From: Octopus sinensis
Lineage: Eukaryota
Direction of reading: 5' to 3'
NCBI RefSeq assembly: GCF_006345805.1
Contig: NC_042998.1
Coordinates: forward strand, 91,698,001-91,762,000
DNA length: 64,000 nucleotides
In this document: positions 1 through 64,000 of the stretch, piece after piece
Layout of the letters: every line of letters starts with the position of its first letter
Position numbering within the stretch: the stretch's first letter is position 1
Made by a program: the position numbers and the translations under genes
Notes under the pieces: generated by a model
Told to the model about the DNA's origin: nothing
Seen by the model: the letters and a program-made list of their open reading frames with translations, nothing else
Databases searched by the model: none

Positions 1-120
1 AGCTTCATGTGCCAAGACTGACTGAAAACACAGAATATTTCTTCAGAGTTATTGCTGTTAACAAAATTGGAAAAAGTCCTCCTTTGGAAAGTGAGGCAGT
101 AACCCCCAAGAGTCCATACT
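1..120 (+). CDS. Exon 1 (5' truncated), FN3 domain 1, type C
   Basis: LHVPRLTENTEYFFRVIAVNKIGKSPPLESEAVTPKSPY; donor GTAAGT at 121. Confidence 0.9.
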
Positions 121-599
121 GTAAGTTTCAAAATGTTTTGAATTTATAAGTCTATTTTGTAACATAATTAATCAAAGACATCAATATTCATCATTTGTAA
201 CGTTGTTTTAACATCAATTTTCCATGTTAACATCACTTTGAATGGTTGTTCCATATAGTAAACTACAATTTTACTTGGTCCTGAATTATCTGGTCTATGT
301 AATAGAGGCCCAAGACCCTCAGGTCTAACTTCCCACATCTTTCCCTATCTTTTATAAATTTTGCCTGATTCTAGTGTATTCTACTGTCGGTTCACAGCAG
401 TTTTTTGTCTCTTAGCAAATACTATCCATTAGATGTTTATACGTTATAGTTACTCCTTTCCACAATAGCTAATGTCTTTAATACTAACAGTAAATAGATG
501 TTGCATAGCCCAGCAATCATGATCAATGTATTCCTCTCCAGTCTTATCAAAGATTCTTTATTTAATGCACATGTCTCTCTATATTGATGTATCCCATAT

Positions 600-960
600 T
601 TTTAACACACTTTTGTACATTCTGTTCTCTTACTGAAAAAAAAAGCATTTTGTCACCAACAAAAGCTTTTCTAACACTTTACCAATTTTTAATTTCACTC
701 GATCAATTTCTGCAATGAGTATATTAACTAGTAAACAAAACCATATACAGTTCCTAGTTAGGCATAGAAACAGATTATGGATTTCATTTCATGTGTGCTC
801 TTGCTTTGATATACTCCTATATAACTGGAGCAGCCAATATTCTAGTTTGTTGTTAGTTTTTAACAGATTCTGCAATGAGAGCTAGGTCCTCAACACATAG
901 AGTACTGAATAATAGTAAACTCTCCAATAAATGCTTGAAATGAGGGTCACTATTGACATT
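600..960 (-). mobile_element. Highly decayed LINE (RTE-like) reverse transcriptase remnant
   Basis: Minus strand near 867-903 reads TLCVEDLALIAES, resembling the RT motif LLYADDLALIAES, with an upstream FQAFIGEF segment; frames are broken; boundaries approximate. Confidence 0.4.
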
Positions 961-1437
961 CATTCATTCTATCAATATATAGCTTGAGTTGCACTCAGAA
1001 GCTGCACTAAACTACTTTTAATGTTCTTTTTCCTATCAATCTATGAAACAAAAATCTTGACAAATAAAACTAAAATCTTGAAAAATAATACCTAACCTTA
1101 GTCAATAAAGCCTAGTGATGTAATCTATGGAAGTTGGGATATAGGACAAGTTATTTTGTGAGTGATGATGGTGTTGGTAGGGATGATGGTAGTAGGACTA
1201 TAATGCACATGACATCACCTCAGACGTTAATGATTTCAACTTGATGGAAATTTATAGAGAATCCAAATTTATCATTAATAATTCTCCTCGGTTTAAATAT
1301 GCCTTTTGCCACATTGAAATGTAAGCTGTTTAGCTCCATATTATTATTAAAAGATGACCTGATAAACTTTTTATAATGTAAAAAGCTATAATATCTTCAG
1401 ATTCTTGACAGACATTCTTTTTGTATTATTTTTTCAG

Positions 1438-1743
1438 CTGTTCCATCAGCTCCTATTGGACCTTTGGAAATAAGCAATGTCACTGTAAACTCTGCTGATC
1501 TTGAATGGAAGAAACCTAAAAGTGATGGTGGTCTTCCTATCACAGGTTACATAATTGAAAACAGGACAGCAACCAGATCAACATGGGGAAAATGTGGCAA
1601 TGTTGATGGTAAAACATTAACTTTCACTGCAACTGGTTTGCTGGAAGATACAGAATATATTTTCCGTGTTAGTGCTGTAAATGATGAAGGTGTCGGAGCT
1701 CCTCTTGAAGCTACTGATACAACAAAACCAACTAGAAAAATTG
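1438..1743 (+). CDS. Exon 2, FN3 domain 2, type A
   Basis: ttttcag acceptor; VPSAPIGPLEISNVT...TKPTRKI; GTAAGA donor; 306 nt. Confidence 0.92.
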
Positions 1744-2320
1744 GTAAGACATATTTAATGTTCTACTTCATTCCTATTTAAAACATTGACTAACAGCACC
1801 ATTTCCTTGCAATAATTCTAATTCCTATTAGTTTTTGCATATAATGCCAGTCAATCAGGCATGGTGATTTAAAAGTATCATTTAATCTGAACATTCCAGA
1901 CACTGATTATAGAAACACATTACTAGAACTGGAACTTTGCTAGACAATACTGGTTATGATTAGGATTTTGTCAGTTTTTCTATTTTTAAAGATATTTCAT
2001 GCAGTATAGTATTTATGAAAAACAATATAGGTGAAAAATTGAAACAAAAATAAGGTGAACATGTTATAACTTATATGCAAGTATATGCAGTACATACTGA
2101 TATTTTCAAAATGTTGAATATCCTCAAAAAGAATTGGCATAAAAAAGATTCTGAATCTTAACAAAGAGTGGATTACCATTAAATAATTGAAGTTATATCC
2201 TTTTGGTTTAATCAGATTACAATATTGGCCTTAGAGGTGCAATAGTAATTCCTTATATAAACATTTGATAATGGTGTGGTTTGTTAATTATAATAATGTG
2301 TGTGTTTTTTGTAATATCAG

Positions 2321-2620
2321 AGCCTCCTGGTCCACCAATCAAGTTTACTGTTGACAAAGTTGGTGCAGATTTTGCTACTCTGCAATGGAAAGCACCAAAA
2401 GTTGATGGAGGTTCCAAGGTTACAGCTTACCACTTGAAGAAGAAAGTAAAGGCAACTGGTGATTGGGAGAAAGTGGCCACCACTAGTGAATTTGAATTTA
2501 CCTACAAAGTTAAAGGCCTCAAGGAAAATGTTGAGCATTACTTCTCTGTATGTGCTGAAAATAGTGCTGGTGTTGGTCCAGCTGCAGAAACAGAGAAAGT
2601 AGTACCAAGAAGAGAACCAA
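2321..2620 (+). CDS. Exon 3, FN3 domain 3, type B
   Basis: atatcag; PPGPPIKFTVDKVG...PRREP; GTAAGT; 300 nt. Confidence 0.92.
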
Positions 2621-14853: not shown

Positions 14854-16680
14854 GTCCTCCTGGCCCACCAATTGATCTCAAACCTTCTAAAGTTGGTGCT
14901 AACTTTGTAGTTTTGAATTGGTCTCCTCCTAAGTCTGATGGAGGATCTCCTATCACAGAATACATCATTAAAAAGAAAGAGAAGAAAGGTGATTGGGAAA
15001 TTGAAAGCACTGTTTCTGATTATGACACATCATTGAAAGTTAACCGTATGAAAGAAGAAGTACCATATTATTTCTCTGTCTTTGCAAAGAATAAAGCTGG
15101 CATCAGTATACCCTGTGAGATGGCAGAACCTATTATTCTGAAAAAGGAACCAACTCCACCTTCCAAACCTGTTGGACCTATTGAAGTTATTGATGTTCAA
15201 TGTAACTCTATAACTATCAAATGGAAACCATCAACTCAGGATGGAGGCTCACCTATTACAGGTTATATTGTTGAGAAGCGAGAAGAGAATAAGACTTATT
15301 GGTCCAAAGTAGAAACTGTTGATCCACACACTACACAGCTTTGCTGTCCAAATTTGAGAGAGAAAACTTCCTATCATTTTAGAGTAATTGCAGTGAATAA
15401 AATTGGTCAGAGTGAGCCACTAGAAACAGAAGGAGCTACTTTAGCTAAGAGCCCATTTGATGTTCCATCAGCACCTCTGGGACCACTAGAAGTTACAAAT
15501 GTAACTGTGAATACTGCAGATCTTGAGTGGAAACCCCCAAAATCTGATGGTGGTTCTAGCATTACTGAGTACCTTATTGAAGTAAAAACTGTTGGCAGAT
15601 CCACTTGGTCAAAGGCTGGCACTGTGGATGGTAAAACTACTCAATTCACAGTTAAAAAGCTAATTGAAGATACAGAATATTTGTTCCGTGTTATTGCAAT
15701 AAATGCTGAAGGGAAGAGCCCTCCACTTGAAGCATCAGACATTACTAAGCCAACTAGAAAGCTCTCACCTCCTGGTCCTCCAAGATCAGTTGAGCCAACA
15801 AAAGTTGGAGAAGATTATGCTGTAATAGAATGGCATCCACCTAAAAGTGATGGTGGCTCTCCAATTACAAATTATATCTTATTCAAGCGAGAGAAGAAAA
15901 CAGGTGATTTTACAAAAGTAGTAACCCTGAAAGAATTTGATTCATTTTATAAAATACCAAATCTTAAGGAAAACACAGAATACTATTTCGGTGTTGCAGC
16001 TGAAAATAAAGTTGGCCAAGGTGAAATTGGAGAAACAGCAACACCAGTTATCCCAAAGAAGGCAGCAACAGTTCCAGGCAAATGTATTGGACCAATTGCT
16101 GTGACAGATGTTCAGCGTAATTCAATTAGCATTAAATGGGAACCTCCAAAAGATGATGGTGGTTCTCCAGTGACCGGCTATACTGTAGAAAAACGAGAAG
16201 CTTCAAGCTCCATGTGGACTAAAGTTAGCAAAGTTGATGAATTAACAACTCAACTAAAGGTTGGAAATCTTACAGAAAAGACTGAATACTATTTTAGAGT
16301 AACAGCTGAAAACAAAGTTGGAAAAGGACCACCATTAGAGACTAATGATGCCACTCTTGCTAAAAGTCCTTTCAACCCACCTTCTATTCCTATTGGCCCA
16401 CTTGAAGTCGATAATGTCACTCATAACAGTGCTGACCTTCACTGGAAAGCACCTAAAGATGATGGTGGATCACCAATAACAGGATACATAATTGAACACA
16501 AGGTAGCTTCCAGATCCACTTGGTCAAAGTGTGGTACAGTTGGTGAAAAAGTAAAAGATTTTACAGTTTCTGGATTATCCGAAGGCACTGAATATCTCTT
16601 TGGTGTCATTGCTGTCAATGCTGAAGGCCAAAGCCAACGTTTAGAAGCTACTGATGTTACTATCCCAACCAGAGTATCAG
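14854..16680 (+). CDS. Exon 15, six fused FN3 domains 15-20 (B-C-A-B-C-A)
   Basis: Poly-T tract then gaaaag acceptor; open 1827 nt = 300+306+306+303+306+306; GTATGT donor at 16681; matches the 603-aa ORF. Confidence 0.93.
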
Positions 16681-45247: not shown

Positions 45248-45380
45248 AATTTCCATTGAATTATTTCTTCCAAAGCATCCCATTTTTTTACCTTGGCTTT
45301 TAACAATAATTTTAAATCATGTAAATAATGCTTATAACTTTAAAAACATCATAATTATATTTTGGGTTTCTATTTTAAAG

Positions 45381-46727: not shown

Positions 46728-47194
46728 GTAAATATTTTCAATTTGCATTTTGAATTAGAATATTTTCCTACCAATATTATTATATCGAAACAAATTTAAA
46801 GTGCAATAGATAACTTAAAATTTTAAATGTACTTGTACAAAAAAATTATTTTGGTCTTCCCTAGATCTGTGGCCAAAATTAACAATTAATATTTTTGTTG
46901 GAATTACAATTTTTTCATATTATTTCCTTTGAGAAAATATTTGCAATTTAACTTCCATTTTATTTGTAAACTTTTTAAAACCATGTTTTCATTTGCATCT
47001 TAAAATTAAAAAGAAAATTTTTCTAATTTCATCTTTGACTAATTTGAAAATAATCTGTGTATTGTGATTTTATAATAACTATTTAAATAATCTGTTATGG
47101 ATCTGTTCTTTATGTAAATTATTTTTTCATAGAAGTTAATGTTTTGTTTTAAAATTTGATGTTGACCACTCTTTTGTTATTTCTATTTGTGTAG

Positions 47195-47497
47195 TTCCTC
47201 CAGGACCTCCTATCAACTTACATGCTACTAAGATTGGCTGTGACTTTGTACAACTTGAATGGCGACCACCAAGAGATGATGGTGGCAGCAAGATTACAAG
47301 ATATATTGTACAACAGAAGAAAAATCGCACTGATGACTGGACTCGTGTTACATCAGTGGATGGTGTGGACACATCTAATCTCGTTACCAATTTGAAAGAA
47401 GGAACTCCTTATTATTTCAGTGTTTTTGCTGAAAATAAAGCTGGACCTGGAAAACTCTGTGAAACTACAGATGCTATTGTGCCAACCCGGGAAATGA
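47195..47497 (+). CDS. Exon 46, FN3 domain 51, type B (absent from ORF track)
   Basis: tgtgtag; PPGPPINLHATKIGCDF...PTREM; GTAAGT; 303 nt. Confidence 0.9.
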
Positions 47498-48396
47498 GTA
47501 AGTAACACAATTTCAAAAATATTTTAACATCTCTAGCCTTAGACATAAACTAACAGCGATCTATCACATTTAAAATTTTAAATAATAAAAACTGAAGGAT
47601 TGCCCTTTGGAGTGATACTCTGTTCAATAGTGGGACTCCTCTGGAAAACCATTTCTGTTTGCACTTTTTAATTATCTACAAAACTATCTGGAGGAAGGTA
47701 CAGGTGGAATTTTTGTTAACCAGAACCCACTGTTTTCCACAAGCAGTAGAGTAAATTCCACTATAGGCAGCCCACAGATAAAAGGTGGTGTTAAACTTGA
47801 AGACTCATTAAAATATAACAGTAAGAACTATATTTATTTATCATGTCATCAATACTGATGATGTGGTGTTACCTATGCTGAGCAGTTTAATTTTGGAGTA
47901 ATCAGCTATAGAAGTCATTTTTCTCAATCTGAGTTAAGTCTCTGCATAGGAATATAGTACAAATTTCCAAGATACAAGATTAGGCAAAATTAAACAAAAT
48001 AATGATTTTATTTCAAATTTATTTTGTTTTACTAAAGTCATCATAAACCTACATATTACTGGAAATTTATTAATTAAATTTGAATTGTTAACTTGAAAGA
48101 CTTACATCACAAGTAATTTACATTTAGCCAAGATATGTTCCTTTAAAAGAGTTAAAGACCAAGAAATAAAATCTCATCTACAAATGAATTAAGTTTAATT
48201 AGTATATTTTAAATCATGAATATTTAAAATTAAAAATCAAATCTATATTCTAATTAAAATAAAATTAATTTGTCATTAAGTTACCTTTATAGCATATTAT
48301 ATATCTTCATAAAAGTATAGGTTATGGTAAGAATTTATGTTCCTCCTTGATTGGGACAAGAGCTAAGAAATTGAATCATGTTCTTTTCTATTTTAG

Positions 48397-48702
48397 GTGT
48401 TCCTTCTGCACCAGCTGGACCTCTTGATATCATTGATGTACAACGAACTTCCATCACAATCAAATGGAAGCCACCGAAGAATGATGGTGGCACACCAATT
48501 ATTGGTTACATAGTAGAGAAAAAGCATCCATCATCATTCCTCTGGAATAGAATGGAACAAGTTACAGCAAATACCTTGCAGTATTACTGTGAAAAGCTGT
48601 TTGAGAAAACTGAATATTTGTTCCGAGTTATTGCTGTTAACAATGTTGGAGAGAGTGTTCCTCTGGAAGCTGAGGGAGCAACATTAGCACGAAGTCCTCG
48701 TG
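48397..48702 (+). CDS. Exon 47, FN3 domain 52, type C
   Basis: attttag; VPSAPAGPLDIIDVQRT...LARSPR; GTAATT; 306 nt. Confidence 0.92.
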
Positions 48703-48847
48703 GTAATTAAATATTCAATTCAAAAAAAAAATTTTGGGGAAATTAGAAAGTTGATATATGTACAAATTAAAATAAGTTTGTGTGAAAACGAGTTTACATA
48801 AAACATTAACGTTTTTCATTTTTAACACCTGTTCATTCCACAACATT

Positions 48848-48893
<46 letters not shown>

Positions 48894-49052
48894 TTTTTTA
48901 AAATGTATATGTATGTGTTGTGTGTTAGTGTAGTTGTGTTTGTTTACATTATGCTCTATGAAAGTTGTGAGGTATGAGCAGTATTCTTCTTGTCATGTCT
49001 GCTAAAAGATTGTCTGTATACTTCATGCCTTCAAAGAAGTATGAAATAAGAG

Positions 49053-49239
49053 ATGTAATGCTTATTTATTCACTTTGTTTTGAATTAATTCTGTATTAGC
49101 TAATAGCTTGGGGATTTTTGATGATGTGATTGTTTACATTACAATGACATTATGAAGAGGCTAAATCTGGCCAGTTTTTACATAAATATGGGTAAAATAT
49201 TTTGGACTAGATATGCTGATTTAAATGCTAAAGGATTAA
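49053..49239. mobile_element. Partial second copy of the piggyBac-like MITE
   Basis: atgtaatgcttatttattcac...gatgtgattgttta...aaatgctaaagga-ttaa aligns with 5613-5809. Confidence 0.7.
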
Positions 49240-49505
49240 AGCTGGAAAGGAAGGGAGCTAACACCTTGCCTCTTAATCAAGTAGATTCAATTTTCTAGGA
49301 AACAATTTGCAATTTCCTGAAATTAATTTCCCTTGCCTTTGGAAGTCACCTAAGAATTCCTATTAGGTTTTTGTTTACTTTCTCCAGTTTAGATGCAGAT
49401 TTCAATTCATTAAGAGTTTTTTGCATACATCAGTCAGTACATTACCATTTACCTAAATATTACAACAGTGTGATGTATAGACACTGTTCCCTTTTGTTCA
49501 CAATT

Positions 49506-49670
49506 GTTTAACGTCTGCTTTCCATGCTAGTATGGGTTGGACGATTTGACGCTCAAGTGGTGTTTTTTTATGTGCCACCAGCAGAGGAGCCAGTCCAGTA
49601 GCACTGGCAACGACCTTGCTCAAATGGTTTTCATGTGCCACTGGCACAAGTGCCTGTAAGGCAATGCTGG
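49506..49670 (-). mobile_element. SINE-like family S1, internally deleted reverse copy
   Basis: gtttaacgtctgctttccatgctagtatgggttggacgatttgac...ttttatgtgccacc. Confidence 0.7.
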
Positions 49671-49788
49671 TAAAGAAACCAGCAGATTGATTTGCAAACT
49701 ATTGTTATTTAATTCTATATATTGCAACAACATTTTATAAACAAACTTTGGAAGTATTGAATGTGTTTGGTATTTTACAGAAAAGAAA

Positions 49789-49938
49789 GTAAATTCCGAA
49801 TGCAGCATAGCTGTAAAAACAGCAGAAAGATATTGGGTATTTTTACCTTTATAAGAAAAAAATAGTTTTTCCATTTTATAAGGGTAAAATACCCAATCTT
49901 TCTGTTGTTTATTCAGTTATGCTGCATTCAGAATTTAC
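49789..49938. repeat. Long imperfect inverted repeat (about 65-bp arms, about 20-nt loop)
   Basis: gtaaattccgaatgcagcatagctg...ttacctttataa pairs with ttataagggtaa...cagttatgctgcattcagaatttac. Confidence 0.9.
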
Positions 49939-50204
49939 ATTTTTGTCTATGTATTGTTATTTTGTTTTCTACTTAAACTTTTACAATGCTGAAGAACCCA
50001 ACAACATATTAAATACTTCTTTAAGTTTTCCCTCTACTTCTATAATTTAGTTTCTAGCAACTATTTTTTAATTTTCAAATATTTACTCAGTGTTCAGTTA
50101 TGGTATAAATAACAAAAATAATATGAAATAAATATATGTGCATTTACCTTTTGATAAATTGGATTTTATTTCTTTTAAAATGATTTAACTATACAACTTT
50201 TCAG

Positions 50205-50510
50205 ATGTTCCATCTCCTCCTGTTGGTCCATTAATAATTGATGGAGTCACAGAGCACACAGCAGATCTTGAATGGAAACCTTCTGAAAAAGATGGTGGCT
50301 CTCCTATTACAGGTTATCTGATTGAATATAGATCAGTAACCCGAAGCACCTGGTCTAAAGCAGGTACAGTTGATGCACATACAACTAGATTTACTGCTAA
50401 AGACCTGATTCCAGGAACAGAATACTATTTCCGTGTAATAGCCATGAACTCTGAAGGAAACAGTCGACCTCTTGAATCGAAAGAACTTATAAAACCAATG
50501 AAGAAACTAA
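50205..50510 (+). CDS. Exon 48, FN3 domain 53, type A (absent from ORF track)
   Basis: ttttcag; VPSPPVGPLIIDGVTEHTADLEW...IKPMKKL; GTAAGT; 306 nt. Confidence 0.9.
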
Positions 50511-51020
50511 GTAAGTTACTTAATTACAATATTTCAGATATATATGGTTTCTTAAAAAATGAGAAGAAACTGTATTAGTTTTTCTGGGTTTTTTTCCTGT
50601 ATATTTGCATAACTAGTTATCCTGTATAAGTAGCTGAAGGTTCATTAAATCAAATATTTTTACTGACTGGATATTGTATCTCTAGTAAAGCTACTCAGTT
50701 GTCTGAGTTGAGTAATAAGAATTGTTATAATATTGACATCTTGTATAGGATACAGTACTCATAAATTTAGAAAATTTAAGAAGTGGATAAATGTAAAACA
50801 TAGGGTTTATGCTAATGCCATGAAATTTAGAAATGTTTCTACAGCTGTAACATTTTAAGGCATTATAATGTCTTAAAATTGTTTACCTTTTTTTAAAGTT
50901 TACCTAATTTTATATTTGCATTTCAATATTTAACTGAATATCCCTTCTATTGATGTCTTATATTCATCCATTACATTCATGTTTTACTTTATAATTTGTA
51001 TTTATTAAATTTATTTGTAG

Positions 51021-51323
51021 CTATTCCTGATGCTCCTGTTAACTTACGAGCAGCAAGAATTGGTGAAAATTTCATAGAATTAGAATGGAATCCTCCAGTT
51101 AACAATGGAGGTACTCCAATCAGAACTTATAACATTGAAATTTCCTCAGGAGCACCAGATAAATGGGTCAAACTCGCCAAAGTTTCTTCACTTGAAACTT
51201 ATTGTAAAGCAACGAAGCTTGATGAAAACATGGATTATTTCTTTAGAGTCACAGCTGAGAATGATATTGGTGTCAGTCTTCCAGCTACAACACCAAAAGC
51301 AATTACAACTAAGAAAGGCCTAT
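51021..51323 (+). CDS. Exon 49, FN3 domain 54, type B
   Basis: tttgtag; IPDAPVNLRAARIG...TKKGL; GTAAGT; 303 nt. Confidence 0.92.
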
Positions 51324-51503
51324 GTAAGTAATTAATTAAATTGTAAATTGAAATGTAGTTAATACCTTTGAAATATAAAGAAACAAATAAAAATACAGTA
51401 TTTTTAATTTAATTATTGTAATGCTTAAATGTGTATTAAGTTTTAAAATAAATATCCAATATCAAAAGAAGGATGTCTATATAAATTACAAATTTACTTT
51501 CAG

Positions 51504-51809
51504 TGGTTCCATCCAAGCCAATTGGTCCTCTTAGTGTTACTGATGTCCAGCGTAAATCTATCAGCATCAAATGGAAAGCACCATCTGATGATGGTGGTTC
51601 TCCTATTACTGGATACATCATAGAAAAACGTCCTGAGTCTGCACGATTCTGGTCAAAGGTCGATAAAGTTCGTGCTGACGTCACAGATTATTGTGTTAGG
51701 GATCTCCAAGAAAGAACTATGTATCACTTCAGAGTGATTGCTGAAAACAAAATTGGAGAGAGTGAACCTTTGGAAACTAAGGATGCCACAACAGCCAGAA
51801 GTCCATATG
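51504..51809 (+). CDS. Exon 50, FN3 domain 55, type C
   Basis: ctttcag; VPSKPIGPLSVTDVQRK...TARSPY; GTGAGT; 306 nt. Confidence 0.92.
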
Positions 51810-52066
51810 GTGAGTTCAGTCATTTTTTTATTTAAAGGCATTTCTTGATTTGGTAAAATCTTAACATAATTGAAACAAAAATAAAACTTGGAAAATAAAC
51901 TTTAATACTGAATTGAACAAATGAAATTTCATTAAAAATAAGCCAATTCAATATGGAAAGTTGCTGTAAAAATGTTAAGATGGTGTTGTTGATGTTGTTG
52001 CTGCCGTTACTAACAAATGATGACACAAATACACAATCTATTATATATTTCCTTTCTATTTTTTAG

Positions 52067-52372
52067 ATGTGCCATCTGCACCAGTTGGTCCATTGGAGAT
52101 CACAAATGTCACCAATAATTCTGCTGACTTGAGCTGGAAACCATCTGCCAATGATGGTGGTACACCAATAACTGGATACATTATTGAACACAGAGTAGAT
52201 TCCAGAACCTTCTGGACTAAGGCAGGCACTGTTAATGAGAAAACTACCACATTTACAGTACCAAATCTTACAGAAGACACAAGTTACCATTTCCGTGTCT
52301 TTGCTGTTAATGCTGAAGGACAGAGCAAACCACTTGAATCTACTGATGTCACAAAACCAGTGAGGAAGATTG
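52067..52372 (+). CDS. Exon 51, FN3 domain 56, type A
   Basis: tttttag; VPSAPVGPLEITNVT...TKPVRKI; GTGAGT; 306 nt. Confidence 0.92.
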
Positions 52373-52504
52373 GTGAGTAATAATCTATTTCTCATTAGAA
52401 TTTTGTCTTCAGATTTTCAGAAGCTTTGTATTTATATGGTAGGATATTAAAGATTATCAGAGAATTTTGTGTATTAAAAATATTTTATTGGAAATGTTTT
52501 TCAG

Positions 52505-52810
52505 AACCACCAAGTGCACCAATTTACTTCAGAGCTACACAAGTTGGTCCTGACTTTGCAGTCTTGGAATGGAAGAAACCACATTCAGATGGAGGTTCTA
52601 AAATCACCAATTACATCATATCTGAAATGGGTGGTACATCATCTGATGTGAAGACTAAAATGAAAACTGTATCAGCTTATGAACATACTTGTCATTTGAA
52701 AGACTTGAAACAGAATTTGTCCTACTACTTCTGTGTTCAAGCTGAGAATAAAGCTGGTCTAAGTCCTTACTGTAATGCAGAATATGCAGTTACACCAATG
52801 CGACCTCTTG
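52505..52810 (+). CDS. Exon 52, FN3 domain 57, type B (Trp-less subtype)
   Basis: ttttcag; PPSAPIYFRATQVG...PMRPL; GTAAGA; 306 nt. Confidence 0.92.
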
Positions 52811-52930
52811 GTAAGATATTTGATATCTCTGTGTAATTTTTGTTTATAGATCTTAAACTTTCTTGGTATTTGATGTGAGTAAAACTTGAGAGACATTATT
52901 TTATCATTGTGTACTGTTTTGTATTTTTAG

Positions 52931-53236
52931 AAAAACCATCGAAACCAATTGGTCCTCTGAAAACCTATGATATTGAGAAAACATCTATTTCCATTTCCTG
53001 GAAAGCTCCAGAAGATGATGGAGGTAGTCCTCTCACTGGTTACATTATTGAGAAGAAAGAAGCTAATAGACAATACTGGAACAATGTGGCTAAGGTAGCA
53101 CCATCAGTGACCAACTACCGTGTTGAGGATCTGAGACAGAACTGTGAATATGACTTCAGAGTTACAGCAATCAATAAAATTGGTCTTAGCGATCCATTAG
53201 AGACCGATGCTTCAACAATGGCAAAGAGCTCATTCA
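52931..53236 (+). CDS. Exon 53, FN3 domain 58, type C'
   Basis: tttttag; KPSKPIGPLKTYDIEKT...MAKSSF; GTAAGT; 306 nt. Confidence 0.92.
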
Positions 53237-53801
53237 GTAAGTCATATATTTGGATTAATATTTTATGCCTGAATGCCATCTCTATCTGTTTATTTGATTT
53301 TCTTTGGTACACATACATAGGCAACTGCAATTTAGAGCTGTTCTAAATATGTTTACTCATGACGTTTTGAAGAAAAGCATATTTGTCAATGAAATTTTGC
53401 AGGGATATGTTTTCTAAGATGTGAAGTGCTGTTATGGTGATAGAATTTATAGAAGTGATTTTTTTGATGGAAGAGATTAAAATCATTTTCTCCTACCTCA
53501 GTTTCCCTAAATATATATGCTTAAACTACTTATATTATATAATCTACATTCATAAAAAACATTTCTGCAAACTTTGCTCTCAAAATATAAATCTTAAAGA
53601 GTTATGAAGAAACAAAGTCAAGAGATGGGGGGAATGATCCAAAACTTCTCAAAAAGTTTTTTTTTGTATGTCATCAGTATAATCTTAATCTATGTTATAA
53701 AGAATATACCAATGCAAACTTCATTAATAGCTATGCATTTTTCAGAAAGTTATGAAGAAAGAATATTGTGGGGTGGGGACAGTGCCAGAATGTGATTTTG
53801 C

Positions 53802-53836
<35 letters not shown>

Positions 53837-53945
53837 ACTTTTTATTCTAGAGTACCACATTTAAATATATTTTAGGGATATACTTTTATGAATACTTATG
53901 AACTTGTTTTCATTAATTTGGTAATTTCCTTATTTCTTATTGTAG

Positions 53946-54251
53946 GTGTACCATCTCGTCCTAAAGGACCTCTTGAAGTTACCAAAGTCTCTTATGACTA
54001 TGTGGATCTTGAATGGAGAGCTCCTGACAGTGATGGAGGCACTCCAATCACTAAATATATTGTTGAAGTAAGATCTGCTGCACGTTTGTCTTGGAACAAA
54101 GCAGAAGAAGTTGATGCCAAATCTACTGTTGCCAGAGTTACAGGTTTAGTCGAGGGTACAGAATATTACTTCCGTGTGATTGCTGTCAATGAGGAAGGAG
54201 AAAGTCCACCCTTGGAGACATCAGAATCTACGATACCAACAAGAGAAATAA
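53946..54251 (+). CDS. Exon 54, FN3 domain 59, type A'
   Basis: attgtag; VPSRPKGPLEVTKVS...PTREI; GTAAGT; 306 nt. Confidence 0.92.
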
Positions 54252-54401
54252 GTAAGTCAAAAAGTTATTCATGTATGTATTTATGTGTGATTGTATGTTT
54301 GGGTGAATTTGAAGAATAGACAGTTCTTTTACTAAATTTCTGAGTAATTGCTTCATTTTTCTAAGAAACTATATTTTGATTATCATATTTTACTTTATTA
54401 G

Positions 54402-54704
54402 TGCCACCTGGACCTCCTGTTAATCTTACGGCTACAAAGATTGGTAAGGACTTTGTGAATCTTGAATGGAAGCATCCTAAGGATGATGGTGGTTCTAAGA
54501 TAACCAAATATGCAATAAAATCAAGGAAAGACAGAAAGAGTGAATGGCAAACTATGATGTCTATTGATGGTAGCAGCCGAAGTTTCAAAGCAACAGATTT
54601 GAAAGAAGGCACTGAATATTACTTTGCTGTCTGTGCTGAAAACAAAGCTGGTTTTGGCAAGATGGCAGAAATTTCTGAAGCTATCATCCCTCTTAGAGAA
54701 GCAA
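54402..54704 (+). CDS. Exon 55, FN3 domain 60, type B
   Basis: ttattag; PPGPPVNLTATKIG...PLREA; GTAAGT; 303 nt. Confidence 0.92.
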
Positions 54705-54842
54705 GTAAGTAAAACATTTTATTTTATCCTCTATTTGGTTCATCTTTATTTATGATTGATCTCATATATGTATTTAAGCATTGTATTATTCCAATCTATA
54801 TAATATATTTGATTTTTTTCCTTGCCTTTGAAAATCTTTCAG

Positions 54843-55148
54843 CTGTACCTTCTATACCAACTGGTCCTCTTGATATCACTGATGTTCAACGTACCAGCAT
54901 TAATATTAAATGGAAAGCATCAAAGGATGATGGTGGTTCACCAATTATCGGATATAGGGTGGAAAAGAAACATCCCAGAGCACTGTTATGGAGCAGAGTT
55001 GATCAAGTGGATGCCTCAACATTTGAAATGTATATTAGAAATCTATATGAAAAGAATGAGTACCTATTTAGAGTCATGGCTATAAATGCAATTGGTCAGA
55101 GTGTCCCACTTGAGTCTGATTCTCCTATACTTACAAGAAGTCCTCATG
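54843..55148 (+). CDS. Exon 56, FN3 domain 61, type C
   Basis: ctttcag; VPSIPTGPLDITDVQRT...LTRSPH; GTATGA; 306 nt. Confidence 0.92.
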
Positions 55149-55434
55149 GTATGACCTCTTCTGTTACTTCTGGTTCAACTGTTTAACATGAATTATATTT
55201 CCTTGTTAACATGTCTTTTAATTTTTATACATTATATCACTATCAGTAAGTCTACCAAAAAATTCATAATTTTCTTGCAATACATGTTTAATTTTCCAGA
55301 AAAAACATACATTAAAACTTCAATTAAAGGTATTTGTAATAGCAAGTAATTATTATTGTATAATAAAATAAAATCCTTATCATCTCATTGTATTCCAACA
55401 TGATGCACAATGTCATCCTACTTTGTATTTACAG

Positions 55435-55737
55435 ATGTACCATCTCCACCAATTGGGCCACTTGCTGTTTCAAATGTCACCTATGATTCAGCTGATCTTG
55501 AATGGAAACCATCTGAAAAGGATGGTGGAACACCTATAACAGGATATTTGATAGAATACAGAACTGCTACTAGATCTACATGGTCAAAGGCAGCAACAGT
55601 GGACCCAAAACAGACAACATATACATGCAGCAATTTGATGGAAGGAACGGAATATTTCTTCAGAGTTATTGCTGTCAATGCTGAGGGACACAGCCGTCCT
55701 TTGGAATCAGATTCTGTTAAACCAATGAGGGAGCTTG
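55435..55737 (+). CDS. Exon 57, FN3 domain 62, type A
   Basis: tttacag; VPSPPIGPLAVSNVT...KPMREL; GTAAGT; 303 nt. Confidence 0.92.
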
Positions 55738-56029
55738 GTAAGTTATAGTTAACTAATGTTGAGTATAATATCGAAATTTAAACAAAATTATGTAGAACGT
55801 GTCTGTAGTGAGCTGATGAACCATGTCATCAGGTAGTTCAAGAAATTTACTTTATCCTACCCATTGTAAACAATATACGTAAACATAATTTACTTAATAT
55901 GCAATAGCTAAAAGGCCACATGGAAACTATTATAATGGTGGAAAGATATATGAGATCAAAAAATATGGGAGTTCAATTTATAACAGCATACATACACACA
56001 CTCACACAAACATACAAACATGCTTGCGT

Positions 56030-56100
56030 TCATTCATACATACATGCATAAATACATACATGCATACATAAATACATACGTACGTACATACATACATTCA

Positions 56101-56131
<31 letters not shown>

Positions 56132-56140
56132 GTACATATG
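56030..56140. repeat. Degenerate (ACAT)n microsatellite
   Basis: Direct reading. Confidence 0.9.
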
Positions 56141-56482
56141 TAAGGTCTGTGTATATATGTAATGTCACCATTGAAAATGATTTAATCTTGTCACTACATG
56201 TCAATATCCAGTTAGTTGGGTGTTACTACACAGCTTTTTCCCTTTCCTTAATTGACTCTAAAACCAATTAAATTCTCAAGAAAGGAATTAATATTGTACC
56301 CAAATGACAATTTATTGAGAGCGAAAATATATGACTTATAAATTAAAAGCTGAAAATCATTGACAGAAAATACATACTTACATTTTTAATGTATTTCACA
56401 TCATACCTTATCAGTATTTGTCAAACCCTAGTATCCTAATCTTAAAGTGTTTAAAATAATACAATGTTGATATTTTTTCTAG

Positions 56483-56785
56483 CTCTACCAGGACCACCTG
56501 TCAATGTCCGAGCTAGCAGAGTTGGTGAAGACTTTGTTGAACTTGAGTGGAATCAACCAAAATCAGATGGAGGAACACCAATTATTAAATACCATGTTGA
56601 AATATCTCCATATAAATTAGGAAACTGGACTAAACTGGCAACTGTTGGAGCTTATGATACATTCTGTAAAGCTACGAGACTTGAAGAAGATATGGACTAC
56701 TATTTCTCTGTATGTGCTGAAAATAAAATTGGAAAAGGTGAAGCTACTGAAACATCGAAACCTGTCACCACAAAGAAGGGACTTT
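56483..56785 (+). CDS. Exon 58, FN3 domain 63, type B
   Basis: tttctag; LPGPPVNVRASRVG...TKKGL; GTAAGT; 303 nt. Confidence 0.92.
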
Positions 56786-56930
56786 GTAAGTATTTTCACT
56801 TGAATATTTGCAGAAAAATAAATTTATACTTGAAATTAGAATATCATGTTTATTTAAATTATAATCTAGTTAAAAGTAGACAGAAGTGTTAAAAGAAAGA
56901 TGTTTATATAAATTATAAATTTACTTTCAG

Positions 56931-57236
56931 TGATTCCATCCAAACCAATTGGTCCTCTTACTGTTACCGATGTCCAACGTAAATCTATCAGCATCAAATG
57001 GAAAGCACCATCTGATGATGGTGGTTCTCCTATAATTGGATACATCATAGAAAAACGTCCCGAGTCTGCTCGATACTGGTCAAAGGTTGATAAAGTTCGT
57101 GCTGACACCACAGATTATTGTGTTAGGGATCTCCAAGAAAGAACTATGTATCACTTCAGAGTAATTGCTGAAAACAAAATTGGAGAGAGTGAACCTTTGG
57201 AAACTAGGGATGCTACCATGGCCAGAAGTCCATTTG
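56931..57236 (+). CDS. Exon 59, FN3 domain 64, type C
   Basis: ctttcag; IPSKPIGPLTVTDVQRK...MARSPF; GTAAGT; 306 nt. Confidence 0.92.
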
Positions 57237-57443
57237 GTAAGTTTAGTCATTATATATTGAATGTATTTCTTGAAAATTTTGCTTTTAATAGTAAAACAAA
57301 ATGTTACATTCAAAATAATTAAAATAACAAAAGTATTTTCATTGAAAAGGCAAAATAATGAGCCACCTGAATTTCCATTAATATTCATCAATAACTGCAA
57401 TATACTGAGTGTTATATTACATATATTCCTATTTATTTCTTAG

Positions 57444-57749
57444 ATGTGCCATCTGCACCAATTGGTCCATTGGAGATCACAAATGTCACCAATAATTCTG
57501 CTGACTTGAGCTGGAAACCATCTGCCAATGATGGTGGTACACCAATAACTGGATACATTATTGAACACAGAGTAGATTCCAGAACCTTCTGGACTAAGGC
57601 AGGCACTGTTAATGAGAAAACTACCACATTTACAGTACCAAATCTTACAGAAGACACAAGTTACCATTTCCGTGTCTTTGCTGTTAATGCTGAAGGACAG
57701 AGCAAACCACTTGAATCTACTGATGTCACAAAACCAGTGAGAAAGATTG
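57444..57749 (+). CDS. Exon 60, FN3 domain 65, type A
   Basis: ttcttag; VPSAPIGPLEITNVT...TKPVRKI; GTGAGT; 306 nt. Confidence 0.92.
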
Positions 57750-57881
57750 GTGAGTAATAATCTATTTCTCATTAGAATTTTTTCTTCAGATTTTCAGAAG
57801 CTTTGTATTTATATGGTAGGATATTAAAGATTATCAGAGAATTTTGTGTATTAAAAATATTTTATTGGAAATGTTTTTCAG

Positions 57882-58187
57882 AACCACCAAGTGCACCAAT
57901 TTACTTCAGAGCTACACAAGTTGGTCCTGACTTTGCAGTCTTGGAATGGAAGAAACCACATTCAGATGGAGGTTCTAAAATCACCAATTACATCATATCT
58001 GAAATGGGTGGTACATCATCTGATGTGAAGACTAAAATGAAAACTGTATCAGCTTTTGAACATACTTGTCATTTGAGAGACTTGAAACAGAATCTGTCCT
58101 ACTACTTCTGTGTTCAAGCTGAGAACAAAGCTGGTCTAAGTCCTTACTGTAATGCAGAATATGCAGTTACACCAATGCGACCTCTTG
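57882..58187 (+). CDS. Exon 61, FN3 domain 66, type B (Trp-less subtype)
   Basis: ttttcag; PPSAPIYFRATQVG...PMRPL; GTAAGA; 306 nt. Confidence 0.92.
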
Positions 58188-58307
58188 GTAAGATATTTGA
58201 TATCTCTATTTAATTTTTGTTGATAGATCTTAAACTTTCTTGGTATTTGATGTGAGTATAACTTGAGAGACATTATTCTATCATTGTGTACTGTTTTGTA
58301 TTTTTAG

Positions 58308-58613
58308 AAAAACCATCGAAACCAATTGGTCCTCTGAAAACCTATGATATTGAGAAAACATCTATTTCCATTTCCTGGAAAGCTCCAGAAGATGATGGAG
58401 GTAGTCCTCTCACTGGTTACATTATTGAGAAGAAAGAAGCTAACAGACAATACTGGAACAATGTGGCTAAGGTAGCACCATCAGTGACCAACTACCGTGT
58501 TGAGGATCTGAGACAGAACTGTGAATATGACTTCAGAGTTACAGCAATTAATAAAATTGGTCACAGTGATCCATTAGAGACCGATGCTTCAACAATGGCG
58601 AAGAGCTCATTCA
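58308..58613 (+). CDS. Exon 62, FN3 domain 67, type C'
   Basis: tttttag; KPSKPIGPLKTYDIEKT...MAKSSF; GTAAGC; 306 nt. Confidence 0.92.
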
Positions 58614-59398
58614 GTAAGCAACAACTCTTTATAGTATCTTGTATTGTATTTGTTTCCATGTCACCTTTTTTGAAAATACAACAGTTTATTTCCAATAATT
58701 CAAACATACATTTAGATGTTGAAGAATGTAAATAAGATCCTTGAGTTAATCTATTTCAAAGAAATAAATGTGTGAATAGCACTTTTGAACAAAGATTATA
58801 AGATAATTTTACTTTAACCACTTTATGAAATTTAAAATATCTTTGGAACTCTAATTGTAGTCTGACTTCGCAGCACATATTGAGTTTCATTCACTTATTA
58901 CCCTGAAATGCATAAAACACATGTATACCTTTGTATTTTTAGATTTTCATAATTAATTTGATTACATAAAACTTTGTGTTCATAAACTTTTTTAAAATAA
59001 ATTTTTATGGTTGAATGTGTATCTAATGATCAGTGAATTTCTAAAGATATCTAAGTCTTTGAGTGGAGTATTCAATATTATTTACATTAAGTTTTCAAAT
59101 TTATCTACAAATTTTGAACAAATTTAGGTGTAAGAAGATCATAAATTATATTTCTACCCCGATATGTGTTTCACATGCATATTCCTTTTGTTATCATAAA
59201 CAGTAATGAACAGGATAAAATATATGTGAGAAAGCTATCACATTATAGAATTAATTTTAACTTCCTTCTTGATGCTTTTATAAACTGCTGAAAATAGATT
59301 TGTAAATAAAAAGAAATTACTCAAATTCATTTTTATCTTCATGTTTAATTATAGAGAATTATCTTAAAACATCCATTCTTTAAAATTCTTCATTTTAG

Positions 59399-59704
59399 GT
59401 GTACCATCTCGTCCTAAAGGACCTCTTGAAGTTACCAAAGTCTCTTATGACTATGTGGATCTTGAATGGAGAGCTCCTGACAGTGATGGAGGTACTCCAA
59501 TCACTAAATATATTGTTGAAGTAAGATCTGCTGCACGCATGTCTTGGAACAAAGCAGAAGAAATTGATCCAAAATCTACTGTTGCCAGAGTTACAGGTTT
59601 AGTCGAGGGTACAGAATATTACTTCCGTGTGATTGCTGTCAATGAGGAAGGAGAAAGTCCACCCTTGGAGACATCAGAATCTACGATACCAACAAGAGAA
59701 ATAA
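59399..59704 (+). CDS. Exon 63, FN3 domain 68, type A'
   Basis: attttag; VPSRPKGPLEVTKVS...PTREI; GTAAGT; 306 nt. Confidence 0.92.
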
Positions 59705-59708
59705 GTAA

Positions 59709-59710
<2 letters not shown>

Positions 59711-59799
<89 letters not shown>

Positions 59800-59830
59800 G
59801 TGTCTATCTATATGTATATGTGTGTGTGTG
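59711..59830. repeat. (TC)n(TATC)n(TG)n microsatellite directly after the exon 63 donor
   Basis: Direct reading. Confidence 0.95.
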
Positions 59831-59964
59831 TTAAATACATATTGTTTATATCAATTTAAACAGAGGAGTGTACAAATACATAAGGTTAATGTTAAAGTGA
59901 ATAAAAAAGTAATAGTCCATTGGAATCACATGAAAAAATTGTGTCTGTTGGTACCTTAGTGTGA

Positions 59965-60290
59965 AGGTGCATATCTTAGTGGTTAGGGTATTCAGCTGTT
60001 GGTCATAAGGTATGAGTTCAATTTCTGGCGGCACTTTGTGTCCCTGACCAAGGCCCTTTATTTCACATTGTTCCAGTACACTCAGCTGGCAAAAATGAAT
60101 TGCACCTGTAGTTCAATGGGCCATACTTGTCACATTTAGTGTGACACATTGAATATCCCTTAGAACTGCATTAAGGGGTAGCATTTCTGTGGAGTACTCA
60201 GTCACTTGCACATTAATTTCACAGGCAGATTGTTCCATTGATCAAATCAACTGCAATACTTGTAATCATAACCTAACCGATGGAGAGTCA
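59965..60290 (+). mobile_element. tRNA-derived SINE family S4, forward copy
   Basis: cttagtggttagggtattc...gagttcaatt...tttcacattg.tccagt.cactcagctggcaaaaatga mirrors 22600-22745. Confidence 0.6.
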
Positions 60291-60973
60291 GCCCAGTGCA
60301 ATTCCCAATATAAGTTCAGTACTTGATATGTATGAATGTAAATTTATTCTCCATATTTGCACACAAATTGGAAGAAATTTGAAACTTGAAAAATTAAATT
60401 TGAATGTTGTATTTATAGAGATGAAGATAGTGGTTAGTTACAGGTGTTACAAAAATGTCTTTGAGTGTCTTTTTACAAAGAATAGGATGAAATTCAATTG
60501 TAAGAATATTACAAACTGTGGATATCATTAAATCAGAAATGTTGATGAACCAAATATACTGAAGTAGTTAACATCATGGCTCACCTTATATCAAAGTTTA
60601 TGGACTGCTCAGATCATATACAATGATGGAAAGGGTAGATAATAACTTCTGCTATCAGAATAATCCATTTAATAATGAGATGGATTTGGTGATAGCTTTG
60701 TAGTAGTGCTGTAGAAAAATAAGTAAGTGTTGAAATATATTTTGTCAGTTTCTCTTTCTCCCTTTAAATAGAAGACTATAATGTATATTTAAACATCAGA
60801 AAGTTGTGTAGAGAGATAGATATACAGACAGACAGATAGACACAGACAAGGAGCATATCTATATGCAAGTTTTGACTTTACATTCCAATACAAATAAAGA
60901 ATTTTATTTTTATATATGTTTGTATTCAATTTACATTACCTGCATTTATATACCAATGTTTCTCTCTTTTTAG

Positions 60974-61276
60974 TGCCTCCTGGAATTCCTGTTTCTTTCA
61001 TGGCTAATAAAGTGGGCAAAAACTTTGTTAATCTTCAATGGAGACATCCTAAAGATGACGGTGGTTCAGCCATTCTCAAATATATTATTAAAATGAGAAA
61101 AGATACAAAATCTGATTGGGTCAAACTGATGACAATTGATGGTAGGGAAACAGCTTACCGTGTACCTGACTTAACTGAGGGTACTGAATACTACTTCTCA
61201 GTTAATGCAGAAAACAAAGTTGGACCTGGAAAGTGTGCTGAACTTCCTGAAGCTGTTGTTCCAACAAGAGAAGCAA
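60974..61276 (+). CDS. Exon 64, FN3 domain 69, type B
   Basis: tttttag; PPGIPVSFMANKVG...PTREA; GTAAGT; 303 nt. Confidence 0.92.
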
Positions 61277-61453
61277 GTAAGTATCTCAAATGACACCTGT
61301 TTACAGATATATTCCATAAAATATTGATTTGAAATAAATAAAAAAAAATATTTATGAAAATAACTGAAGATACATAAGAATTTAAAGAATTAAATATGTT
61401 CATAATTCTAATTTTTTAATTTAAAAATATTGTTTGTACCTTGTTTTTTTTAG

Positions 61454-61759
61454 CTGTACCTTCATGTCCTACTGGTCCTCTTGACATTACTGATGTCCAA
61501 CGTACTAGCATCAGTATTAAATGGAAGGCACCAAAGGATGATGGCGGTTCACCAATTATTGCTTACAATGTTGAGAAGAAGCATGCTAAAGCCCATATAT
61601 GGAGTAGGGTAGATCAAGTGGATGCTTCAACATATGAAATGTGTGTTAGAGGCCTTTATGAGAAGAATGAATATCTCTTCAGAGTTATTGCTGTCAACAA
61701 GATTGGACAGAGTCCACCTCTTGAGTCAGACGCAGCTACTTTAGCTCGTAGTCCATTCG
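61454..61759 (+). CDS. Exon 65, FN3 domain 70, type C
   Basis: tttttag; VPSCPTGPLDITDVQRT...LARSPF; GTAAGT; 306 nt. Confidence 0.92.
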
Positions 61760-62343
61760 GTAAGTTTCTTTTAAAATATTTTAGTTCTAGTTTTGTTGTG
61801 AGTGTGGTGTTGATATATGAATAAAGTAAAATCTTTTGTGCTTACAAAATATTGTGTAGTGAAGATTACTGTCACTTACTATTCAGTAAATTTACTGGAT
61901 TGTGGTACTTCTCTTTCCACCTTACCTTCCTCTCCAACTTGATGGTGGTTTAGCCCTAGAATAAAATATCTGTCTTTAGGCCTTCCAACCTATCTACTCT
62001 ACACTAGATTCCATCATATCATCCAGATGGAAGAAAATTGCCAGAAATTACAAGCCAAAGGAAAAACAGAGTCAGTAGATATTGTTCGGCACTCTATGTG
62101 ACAATAGCTCCCACTATTCAGCGATACTCAGAAATTGAAATAAGGCATGCAAAATGATTTGCCATTCTCCATGCAACTTGCAACATGTCTGTGTTTCTAC
62201 ACTTATTTCAAATTAATAATTCCTATCATTAACACTGCCAGTGCTAACGATAGGCATTATTAGTTTTGAATAAAACTAAATACAAACGAGAAGACAATTA
62301 ATGTAACCATGCTAGTTGTCCCATAAATTAGTTACTGTATGAC

Positions 62344-62557
62344 CATCATCATCATCATCACCGTTTAATGTCCGCTTTCCATGCTAGCATAGGTTGGATG
62401 ATTTGACTGAGGACTGGCGAACCAGATGGCTGCACCAGGCTCCAATCTGATCTGGTAGAGTTTCTACAGCTGTATGCCCTTCCTAATGCCAACCACTCTG
62501 AGAGTGTAGTGGGTGCTTTTATGTGCCACTGGCGCGAGGGTCAGTCAGGCAGTACTG
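62344..62557 (-). mobile_element. SINE-like family S1, reverse copy with (CAT)n
   Basis: Reverse complement of 26471-26686. Confidence 0.8.
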
Positions 62558-63834
62558 TTGAATTATAAATAAGAAAGATGAACATGAAAATAAGGAACTT
62601 ATGAGAGGATTCAGAATATGTTACTGTAAATCTGATGTAGATAGAATAAATGTAGGAAAGCACTCTTAACATAGAAAATAGGCTCTGATGTTATCAAAAG
62701 AGAACAGATAAGAAAGTAATTAAATACAATGGATAAATTGAAAATATTGAACAGCTGAGGATAAGAAGAGCACACAACTGAAAAAGCATTGAAAATACAC
62801 AGCATAAAGAGCTTGAAAATAAGATGAAATATGTTTGGTGGATTAAACACTCTGGTAAAATTTCAGCAATATTGAATTAAATGTGAACTGAAGTCAAGTA
62901 TAGATTAAAATAATATAACCATAAGAGACTACATGAAATCTTATCAGACTTTCTAAGACGTAGTTAACAGAAATTGAGCAGAAATACCAAGGAATATCTA
63001 ACCACATTATCTCAAGACAGCTCATTTTATCTCCAAAAGAACATACACATAAACATGGCACTATCAAATTAGGATAAGTTACTAAAGATGGTTTGTATTT
63101 ACACAAACTTTGAACTAAAGAGATTATATTCTTGGACTGAACATTCCTCTCTATCCTTTAATATATTAGTTTTATTTCACAAGATCACTTCCAAGAGCTC
63201 AGTTTTGGCATTACTTTTAGTTTCATTTTCCTGTTTCATGAGAAAGAAGGAAAAGATATTGCTTAAATTTGAAGTTCAAATACATTCCAATGAGGCTAAG
63301 CTATTTTAAAATAGCATGGTAAAATAGGAGTAATTGAAACATGACAGCTTTAAAAAGAAAGAGTAAGAATAAGTATTTTAGAGTAGTGAACAGCAAATAT
63401 TATATTCATTTCAAACAAATTATATTCCACTAGCTTTCCATTATAATGAATTATATATTTTCTTTCAAAAACACATTTTGCTGATTAAAATAGTATTTAC
63501 CTTAAATTCTATTAAATTTGCTTTGAAAATAAGAATATTGTTCCAAATATAGCCAATATAAGTGATCTTTTTCAATTTTCATCTTCTCTTTTGCCTCATT
63601 ACAATAAACTTATAATAAAACTTTGAAAAATTATAGGTTCTTCACTCTATTTATAACTTTCATCATACTATATAGGTATATTAAAAAAATTTAGTAAGCA
63701 AAAACAAAATAGATCAATGAATTAACATTTCATATAATTGTATACTATTCAGCTTATTCTCCATTTTAATCTAAATTAACGCTTATCACTTTTCATATAA
63801 TTTATTTCTCCTACTTTTATTTGCCTATTTTCAG

Positions 63835-64000
63835 ATGTGCCATCTCCACCTGTTGGCCCACTGGTTATCTCAAATGTCACCTACAATTCAGCTGATCTTG
63901 AATGGAAACCATCTGAAAATGATGGTGGAACTTCCATTACAGGATATTTGGTTGAATACAGAACAGCTACCAGAACCACATGGTCAAAGGCAGCAACAGT
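63835..64000 (+). CDS. Exon 66 (3' truncated), FN3 domain 71, type A
   Basis: ttttcag; VPSPPVGPLVISNVTYNSADLEWKPSENDGGTSITGYLVEYRTATRTTWSKAAT. Confidence 0.9.
   Translation, partial: MCHLHLLAHWLSQMSPTIQLILNGNHLKMMVELPLQDIWLNTEQLPEPHGQRQQQ

Follow-up and report, generated by a model that had tools for sequence, protein, structure and literature searches.

Here we analyse a 64,000-nt stretch of the Octopus sinensis genome (C2:91,698,001-91,762,000; hereafter the window), which is the middle of an already annotated octopus titin/connectin gene. FN3-like frames on the + strand span the entire window (six-frame translation). Splice-site modelling gives 66 exons that touch it, of which 65 start inside and one starts about 180 bases upstream; the last is cut at 64000. 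Together they encode 71 FN3 domains, the outermost two being truncated at the window edges: 65 exons of 294-306 nt carry one domain each, and one long exon carries six. All exon boundaries are AG/GT and phase 1, and in-script splicing yields 7,205 aa without a stop. The principal features of the window are as follows.

1..64000, + strand: 66 phase-1 exons, 71 FN3 domains in strict C-A-B order (splice modelling, classing, Pfam)
1..120, + strand: 3' part of a C-type FN3 exon starting upstream of the window (splice modelling)
14854..16680, + strand: single exon encoding six FN3 domains, B-C-A-B-C-A (splice modelling, classing, Pfam)
21825..64000, + strand: zone of the nine-domain (3x3) super-repeat, continuing about 37 kb past the window (identity and class analysis)
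21825, 31300, 40015, 48397, 54843 and 61454, + strand: C exons at which super-repeat units begin
52039..58621, + strand: exon blocks, with their short introns, duplicated recently in tandem (DNA identity)
63835..64000, + strand: 5' portion of an A-type FN3 exon truncated at the window end (splice modelling)

Leave-one-out classing assigns the expected C-A-B class to 71 of 71 domains. Mean identity within classes is 0.59 (A), 0.43 (B) and 0.57 (C), and 0.32-0.43 between classes. The Pfam fn3 cut-off is passed by one exon of each class, and the long exon has six stretches that match fn3. An original prediction, made from the sequence, had proposed 66 exons, 71 FN3 domains and a strict C-A-B order with a Pfam fn3 check, all of which agree with the modelling, splicing, classing and Pfam results. 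The sequence of the six-domain exon is present wholly or partly in 20 of the 24 sequencing runs listed; none of the listed holders is an RNA run, which has no bearing on expression.

The window lies within a titin locus

Using profiles for Ig, FN3 and kinase derived from search hits, we analysed 500 kb upstream and 300 kb downstream of the window. All parts of the locus lie on one strand, shared with the window.

C2:91,408,072-91,501,414, + strand: about 27 Ig domains (profile scan)
C2:91,485,598-91,629,125, + strand: eight Glu/Val/Ile/Lys/Thr-rich PEVK-like blocks, about 16,000 codons, with frame breaks (frames)
C2:91,612,081-91,681,021, + strand: about 30 Ig domains (profile scan)
C2:91,681,780-91,693,282, + strand: FFF-Ig-Ig-FFF-Ig-Ig, where F is FN3 (profile scan)
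C2:91,693,518-91,821,101, + strand: FN3 run, 142 domains
C2:91,823,279-91,823,886, + strand: stop-bearing exon after the run
C2:91,829,506-91,862,014, + strand: three further FN3 domains
C2:91,862,150-91,866,010, + strand: Ig-Ig-FN3
C2: about 91,868,400-91,881,550, + strand: kinase, six exons
C2:91,929,958-91,963,171, + strand: about six C-terminal Ig domains (possibly five, because weak I-set matches on a Ser/Asp/Tyr/Arg-rich repeat frame may be spurious)

The FN3 run is uninterrupted and stop-free over 137 exons, 142 domains and 14,402 aa. It begins 4.5 kb ahead of the window and continues for 59 kb beyond it, and the window domains are numbers 4-74. Its first exon is a phase-1 internal exon about 235 bases past an Ig exon. 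Pfam finds I-set in two of two junction Ig domains tested and Pkinase in three of three kinase exons tested. The E-rich, PEVK-like frames have a whole-frame P+E+V+K content of 0.41-0.52, with one at 0.38 (a published criterion for PEVK is >40%; PMC12063666); their proline content is low and they contain assembly frame breaks.

The locus displays three features of titin/connectin: a tandem series of I-set Ig domains, a PEVK-type region, and Ig-Ig-FN3-kinase followed by Ig. It lacks the mixed Ig/FN3 super-repeats of 7 and 11 domains of the vertebrate-type A-band, and instead has an Ig-free region with periods of 3 and 9. The original prediction had described the window as titin-family intracellular FN3, probably annotated only as titin-like, with neither the Fn-Fn-Ig pattern of twitchin nor the vertebrate 7/11 pattern, and this description holds. 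It had also proposed extending the search into the flanks; that extension uncovers the Ig series, PEVK-like blocks and kinase, and makes the free-standing Ig-free protein it had envisaged very unlikely.

If all were used, the FN3, Ig, low-complexity and kinase parts would sum to roughly 38,000 aa, a rough figure because the low-complexity frames include flanks and breaks; all human titin exons together encode 38,138 aa (PMC12198301). The locus is about 690 kb long, counted from the start of the RefSeq model at C2:91,269,757, and the N-terminal motifs of this model map 407-428 kb upstream of the window. Titin with SEC14 and spectrin repeats upstream has been named 'connectitin' (PMC12198301); a Pfam search of eight single N-terminal exons left SEC14 unconfirmed and gave one sub-threshold spectrin match.

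The gene is known, and is not twitchin

In RefSeq XP_029652063.1, 'titin-like', a single chain combines upstream Ig domains and two PEVK-like motifs with exons of the window (supplement of PMC12063666). From a first set of motifs, four of five peptides are found in it, the fifth being split by line ends, and the upstream Ig runs directly into the array and window exons; from a second set, four of six are found (two PEVK-like, one Ig and one window exon). It has no match for a motif of the largest PEVK-like block or for a kinase motif. The model ends by an out-of-frame join of the post-run exon to the next FN3 exon and stops before the kinase. Database models provide the splicing evidence, and the Ig-to-array join comes from the RefSeq model. 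The array-to-kinase join is drawn from frame-compatible exons and an overlap in Lingula only: the Lingula FN3-run protein P0024 ends in the Ig sequence that opens the Lingula Ig-Ig-FN3-kinase model XP_013419371.1, which supports the join.

The kinase start at the locus is identical to that of Os_CON XP_036371388.1, the 'octopus connectin' of PMC12198301 (Hanashima 2025). The octopus records are two, with the window, Ig and PEVK-like parts in XP_029652063.1 and the kinase in XP_036371388.1. In the matrix of PMC12198301, the octopus connectin kinase shares 74% identity with oyster connectin kinase A1, compared with 57% for oyster twitchin. The locus kinase is predicted to be active because the glycine loop, the AAK lysine, HLDLKPEN and DFG are all present. 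The post-run exon carries a stop of its own and looks like the short tails with which rotifer proteins, P0371 and P0396 close after 8-14 FN3 domains, which makes a kinase-less isoform plausible.

Two other identities can be weighed against this one. The locus kinase is 50-58% identical to twitchin kinases (pairwise identities; of 20 comparison proteins, 15 have the extraction motif), and both share FF-Ig2-F-kinase-Ig as their C-terminal order, as expected if the window belonged to an octopus twitchin gene with an expanded core. However, the O. bimaculoides twitchin P0215 maps to C7:17.30-17.45 Mb, where 62 pieces at an identity of at least 85% cover 3,466 of its 4,558 aa (190 kb examined), and it reaches at most 56% identity to the window's locus. 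This refutes the twitchin identity, to which we attach virtually no probability; nor do an Fn-Fn-Ig core, the lack of a PEVK-scale I-band part or orthology to mollusc twitchin, which mark twitchin and projectin, describe the locus. The original prediction saw a distinct, Ig-free, all-FN3 giant protein. Such a protein might be made, for example, via an internal promoter. The run is Ig-free and FN3-only database fragments exist (Lottia P0001, Bulinus P0121), but the Lottia record is marked partial, and the first exon of the run is the internal exon described above, which RefSeq joins to the Ig exon before it. Moreover, Ig exons occur from 4.7 kb upstream of the window (Pfam I-set E 7e-18), the same locus holds about 69 Ig domains, PEVK-like exons and a kinase, and the Ig2-to-FN3-run junction recurs within one chain in the orthologues from oyster, rotifer and leech. 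With XP_029652063.1 also joining upstream Ig exons to window exons, a separate protein is very unlikely.

Several further features lie in or near the locus. A 17-kb block at C2:91560108-91577526 consists of repeats of roughly 32 residues rich in E/I/K/T/V, whose many changes of frame would reflect either indels in the assembly or decay of an exon; its motif was not found in the RefSeq model. An IQ-like motif at C2:91616664, just 5' of the last PEVK-like exon, is also in the RefSeq model. Within the second Ig series, a unique charged frame of 395 codons (C2:91676477-91677661) has no Pfam match and is a candidate alternatively spliced insert. Long intronic frames occur at C2:91846821-91848518 and 91953070-91954380, the first resembling, by eye, a non-LTR (long terminal repeat) retrotransposon reverse transcriptase. 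The Ser/Asp/Tyr/Arg-rich tandem repeat frame (C2:91929166-91930158; unit of about 10 residues) lies between the kinase and C-terminal Ig exons. On the same strand, 85 kb beyond the last Ig, a Glu/Ser/Thr/Val-rich frame of 2,076 codons (C2:92048543-92054770) gave only a sub-threshold apolipoprotein match in Pfam over its first 1,152 aa.

The FN3 run contains no Ig domain

Ig exons overlooked within introns had been named as a finding that would overturn the original prediction. Among 1,384 open frames on the + strand of the run's 137 introns, which total 92,779 bases, the search-hit-built profile detects no Ig (best E 4.3), and there is no Ig match on either strand over the whole FN3 run. As Ig exons occur elsewhere in the gene, the statement 'no Ig' is true of the window and of the whole run, and false of the gene.

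The proposal that the B domain fills the slot occupied by Ig in twitchin finds no support: A, B and C each score 1-3 bits on the Ig profile, and B resembles the twitchin FN3 that precedes Ig. With twitchin positional profiles, the FN3 following Ig is matched by C (23 of 23) and A (23 of 24), and the FN3 preceding Ig by B (23 of 23). Vertebrate positional profiles, unlike those of twitchin, give a mixed result, the best being 'last' for C in 18 of 23, A in 18 of 24 and B in 14 of 23.

Triads are nested in a nine-domain super-repeat

In the run, mean identity is 0.35 off-phase, 0.47 at lags of 3 and 6, 0.61 at a lag of 9 and 0.57 at 18. The triad is strict over the first 119 domains and decays thereafter. 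In a central zone, from 21825 in the window to about 37 kb past it, 85 of 90 domains fall into the expected one of nine classes when near-copies are excluded; at both ends of the run, nine-class matches are scattered. This nine-domain super-repeat, of about ten units, is absent from the original prediction. The central units are recent duplicates with 78-98.5% DNA identity: 52039-53241 is 98.1% identical to 57415-58618, and 56471-58621 is 98.5% identical to a copy 9.4 kb downstream, just beyond the window. These data show that the super-repeat has recently expanded by duplication in the middle of the run.

A literature search, with subscription journals largely outside its reach, turned up no account of either the FN3-only run or the super-repeat, and the run is not described in the available parts of PMC12063666 or PMC12198301. 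The gene is already known, and the 142-domain Ig-free run with its 3x3 super-repeat is an apparently undescribed variant of titin architecture. The triad itself is common to limpet, snail and oyster titins. Octopus is absent from Table S1 of PMC12063666; FN3 runs in the titins of oyster, scallop and sea urchin may already be depicted in published figures.

Relatives and domain phylogeny

Among the 150 matches listed, there is no closer full-length orthologue, the longest being 7,602 aa; two other homologue searches were restricted to proteins of 1,067-5,000 aa. The best match to the six-domain exon is the FN3-only fragment of the limpet Lottia (49%). The length of the run differs between taxa, with 8-14 FN3 domains in rotifers, P0371 and P0396, about 28 or more in oyster (counted by eye in an incomplete model), 40 in the fragment from the snail Bulinus and 142 in octopus. 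In rotifer and leech proteins, 13-14 FN3 domains come after FFF-Ig2 units, and the triad signal is weak or absent.

Octopus and limpet A domains group with a support of 98, and B domains with 99 (SH-like approximate likelihood-ratio test, SH-aLRT). C domains of the two group at 97 in a FastTree run and are ungrouped in the other tree; the B class is placed differently in the two trees, and trees of 100-residue domains are poorly resolved. Ambulacrarian and mollusc array domains are split with 97% SH-aLRT support, which suggests a separate origin of the ambulacrarian Ig-free runs; a single clade of mollusc and ambulacrarian arrays is not rejected by the approximately unbiased test (AU p = 0.19).

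Two other repeat patterns were observed. Lag-3 similarity occurs in the echinoderm FN3 runs P0101 and P0122 (0.78 versus 0.54 in Diadema, weak in Patiria), and hemichordate runs are without it. In nemertean (Lineus fragment), leech and P0371 titins (P0018, P0183, P0371), an FFF-Ig-Ig unit is repeated several times, a second type of spiralian super-repeat; these repeats precede the FN3 run, which the Lineus fragment does not reach.

A probable thick-filament segment

We consider it probable that the titin run of 142 Ig-free FN3 domains, of which the window is part, binds the myosin filament in an A-band-like manner, with the upstream Ig and PEVK-like parts as a spring. In the Protein Data Bank, one triad has its best sequence matches in titin C-zone chains and in A84-A86 (E 3e-132 to 1e-48). 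Domain spacing in octopus is 101.6 aa versus 98.8 in a fish titin fragment, or about three residues more per unit. Three linker residues correspond to about 1 nm and 11 domains to about 43 nm (PMC10665226), so that in octopus one domain would take up about 4.8 nm, a triad 14-15 nm and a set of nine domains 43-44 nm. The vertebrate 11-domain repeat, also about 43 nm, follows a 3-4-4 pattern on crowns 14.3 nm apart (PMC10665226, PMC10665186). Mussel thick filaments repeat at 14.5 nm (PMC2493523), and tarantula filaments have a 43.5-nm helix (PMC2112506). A triad of about 305 aa would therefore span one myosin crown of about 14.5 nm, and a nine-domain unit would span three. Given this arithmetic and the matches to titin A-band chains, the run most likely lies along the thick filament, and the upstream parts would act as the spring. 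Two types of isoform would be expected: the first would stop at the stop-bearing exon that follows domain 142, and the second would read on to Ig-Ig-FN3-kinase.

Several points weigh against this assignment. The crown match is arithmetic only and derives from the rule of thumb of one paper. The 43.5-nm helical repeat was found for tarantula, and the literature search yielded no cephalopod value. A single-sequence AlphaFold model of a triad has three beta-rich domains (predicted local distance difference test (pLDDT) 66, predicted template-modelling score (pTM) 0.34, root mean squared deviation 20 Å to A84-A86); it leaves the interdomain geometry unfixed and is unused for length. The run would span only about 0.6-0.7 micrometre and cannot be a general length ruler, because squid thick filaments range from 0.81 to 7.4 micrometres, the latter in obliquely striated arm muscle (PMC4757648). 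The RefSeq model stops short of the kinase, and rotifer proteins, P0371 and P0396 end kinase-less after 8-14 FN3 domains. Finally, the fragments from limpet and snail lack the nine-domain period, and the runs of rotifer, leech and Lingula have little or no triad periodicity, so the nine-domain period could be a neutral footprint of duplication.

These points lend some weight to an alternative within the same gene, in which the FN3 run is a passive spacer or second spring from the Z-body to the tip of the thick filament and the periods Yet the classes have been distinct since the cephalopod/gastropod split, as the octopus-limpet grouping of A and B attests, which suggests position-specific constraint, and the run occupies the place of the vertebrate thick-filament segment, directly before Ig-Ig-FN3-kinase. 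We regard the spacer as the less probable account, although one with an appreciable chance. The central near-identical units could also be partly an assembly artefact, with a true run of fewer than 142 domains: some domains nine apart are 97-100% identical and upstream repeat exons have frame breaks. However, the DNA identity of the copies is graded from 78 to 98.5%, longer introns between blocks are mostly unalignable, and the nine-domain period persists among units at 55-80% identity, which together make an artefact improbable.

Implications and comparison with known titins

If the run does follow the thick filament, a wider scenario can be sketched, although we hold it only tentatively and think it rather doubtful as a whole. 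Octopus would have a single titin in full vertebrate-style order with a coding capacity near or above that of human; its FN3-only thick-filament segment would have evolved independently as a 3x3 super-repeat tuned to 14.5-nm crowns, and Ig-free runs would have arisen again in echinoderms and hemichordates. This would represent a convergent solution to the titin ruler, and would be evidence that the I-band titin of the bilaterian ancestor already bore an A-band-type end and a kinase. PMC12198301 leaves undecided whether chordate titin results from fusion in chordates or was instead split in protostomes, and mollusc titins are described only as 'more mixed' in the available text of PMC12063666. 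A mollusc locus with the full vertebrate order plus a separate twitchin gene bears directly on this question. An FN3-only repeat region with its own periods of 3 and 9 is also a natural test of the tuning of titin super-repeats to the myosin lattice, and, because cephalopod thick filaments vary about tenfold in length (PMC4757648), filament length can be set against the splicing and length of the array. The surprise is limited, as the gene and the FN3 runs of orthologues are already in databases and supplements.

A close architectural counterpart is oyster titin XP_034304301.1, listed with scallop XP_021365920.1 in Table S1 for Fig. 1A of PMC12063666. As in octopus titin, PEVK-like repeats are followed by an Ig series, by FFF-Ig2-FFF-Ig2 and then by an Ig-free FN3 run, whose domains are of the same kinds; the oyster model breaks off after about 28 FN3 domains (by eye), whereas octopus has 142 and the nine-domain super-repeat. 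Twitchin and projectin share the FN3 type and the C-terminal FF-Ig2-F-kinase-Ig, but in the examples examined their cores have at most three FN3 domains between Ig domains, one fluke model excepted. Titin-like proteins of echinoderms and hemichordates (Patiria XP_038047568.1, Saccoglossus, Diadema, Ptychodera) also have an Ig series followed by Ig-free FN3 runs, of 12-40 domains; by positional profiles their FN3 domains match the middle/last type and not the post-Ig type. Vertebrate titin shares with octopus the order Ig - PEVK - Ig - repeat region - Ig-Ig-FN3-kinase - Ig and the FN3 sequence type, and its C-zone resembles the octopus run in that the best-conserved, youngest repeats are central and the ends divergent (PMC10665226). 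By contrast, the octopus repeat region is Ig-free with periods of 3 and 9 rather than 7 and 11, its PEVK-like part is proline-poor, and its kinase has canonical DFG and catalytic motifs, whereas the vertebrate titin kinase has been called a pseudokinase (PMC12862963).

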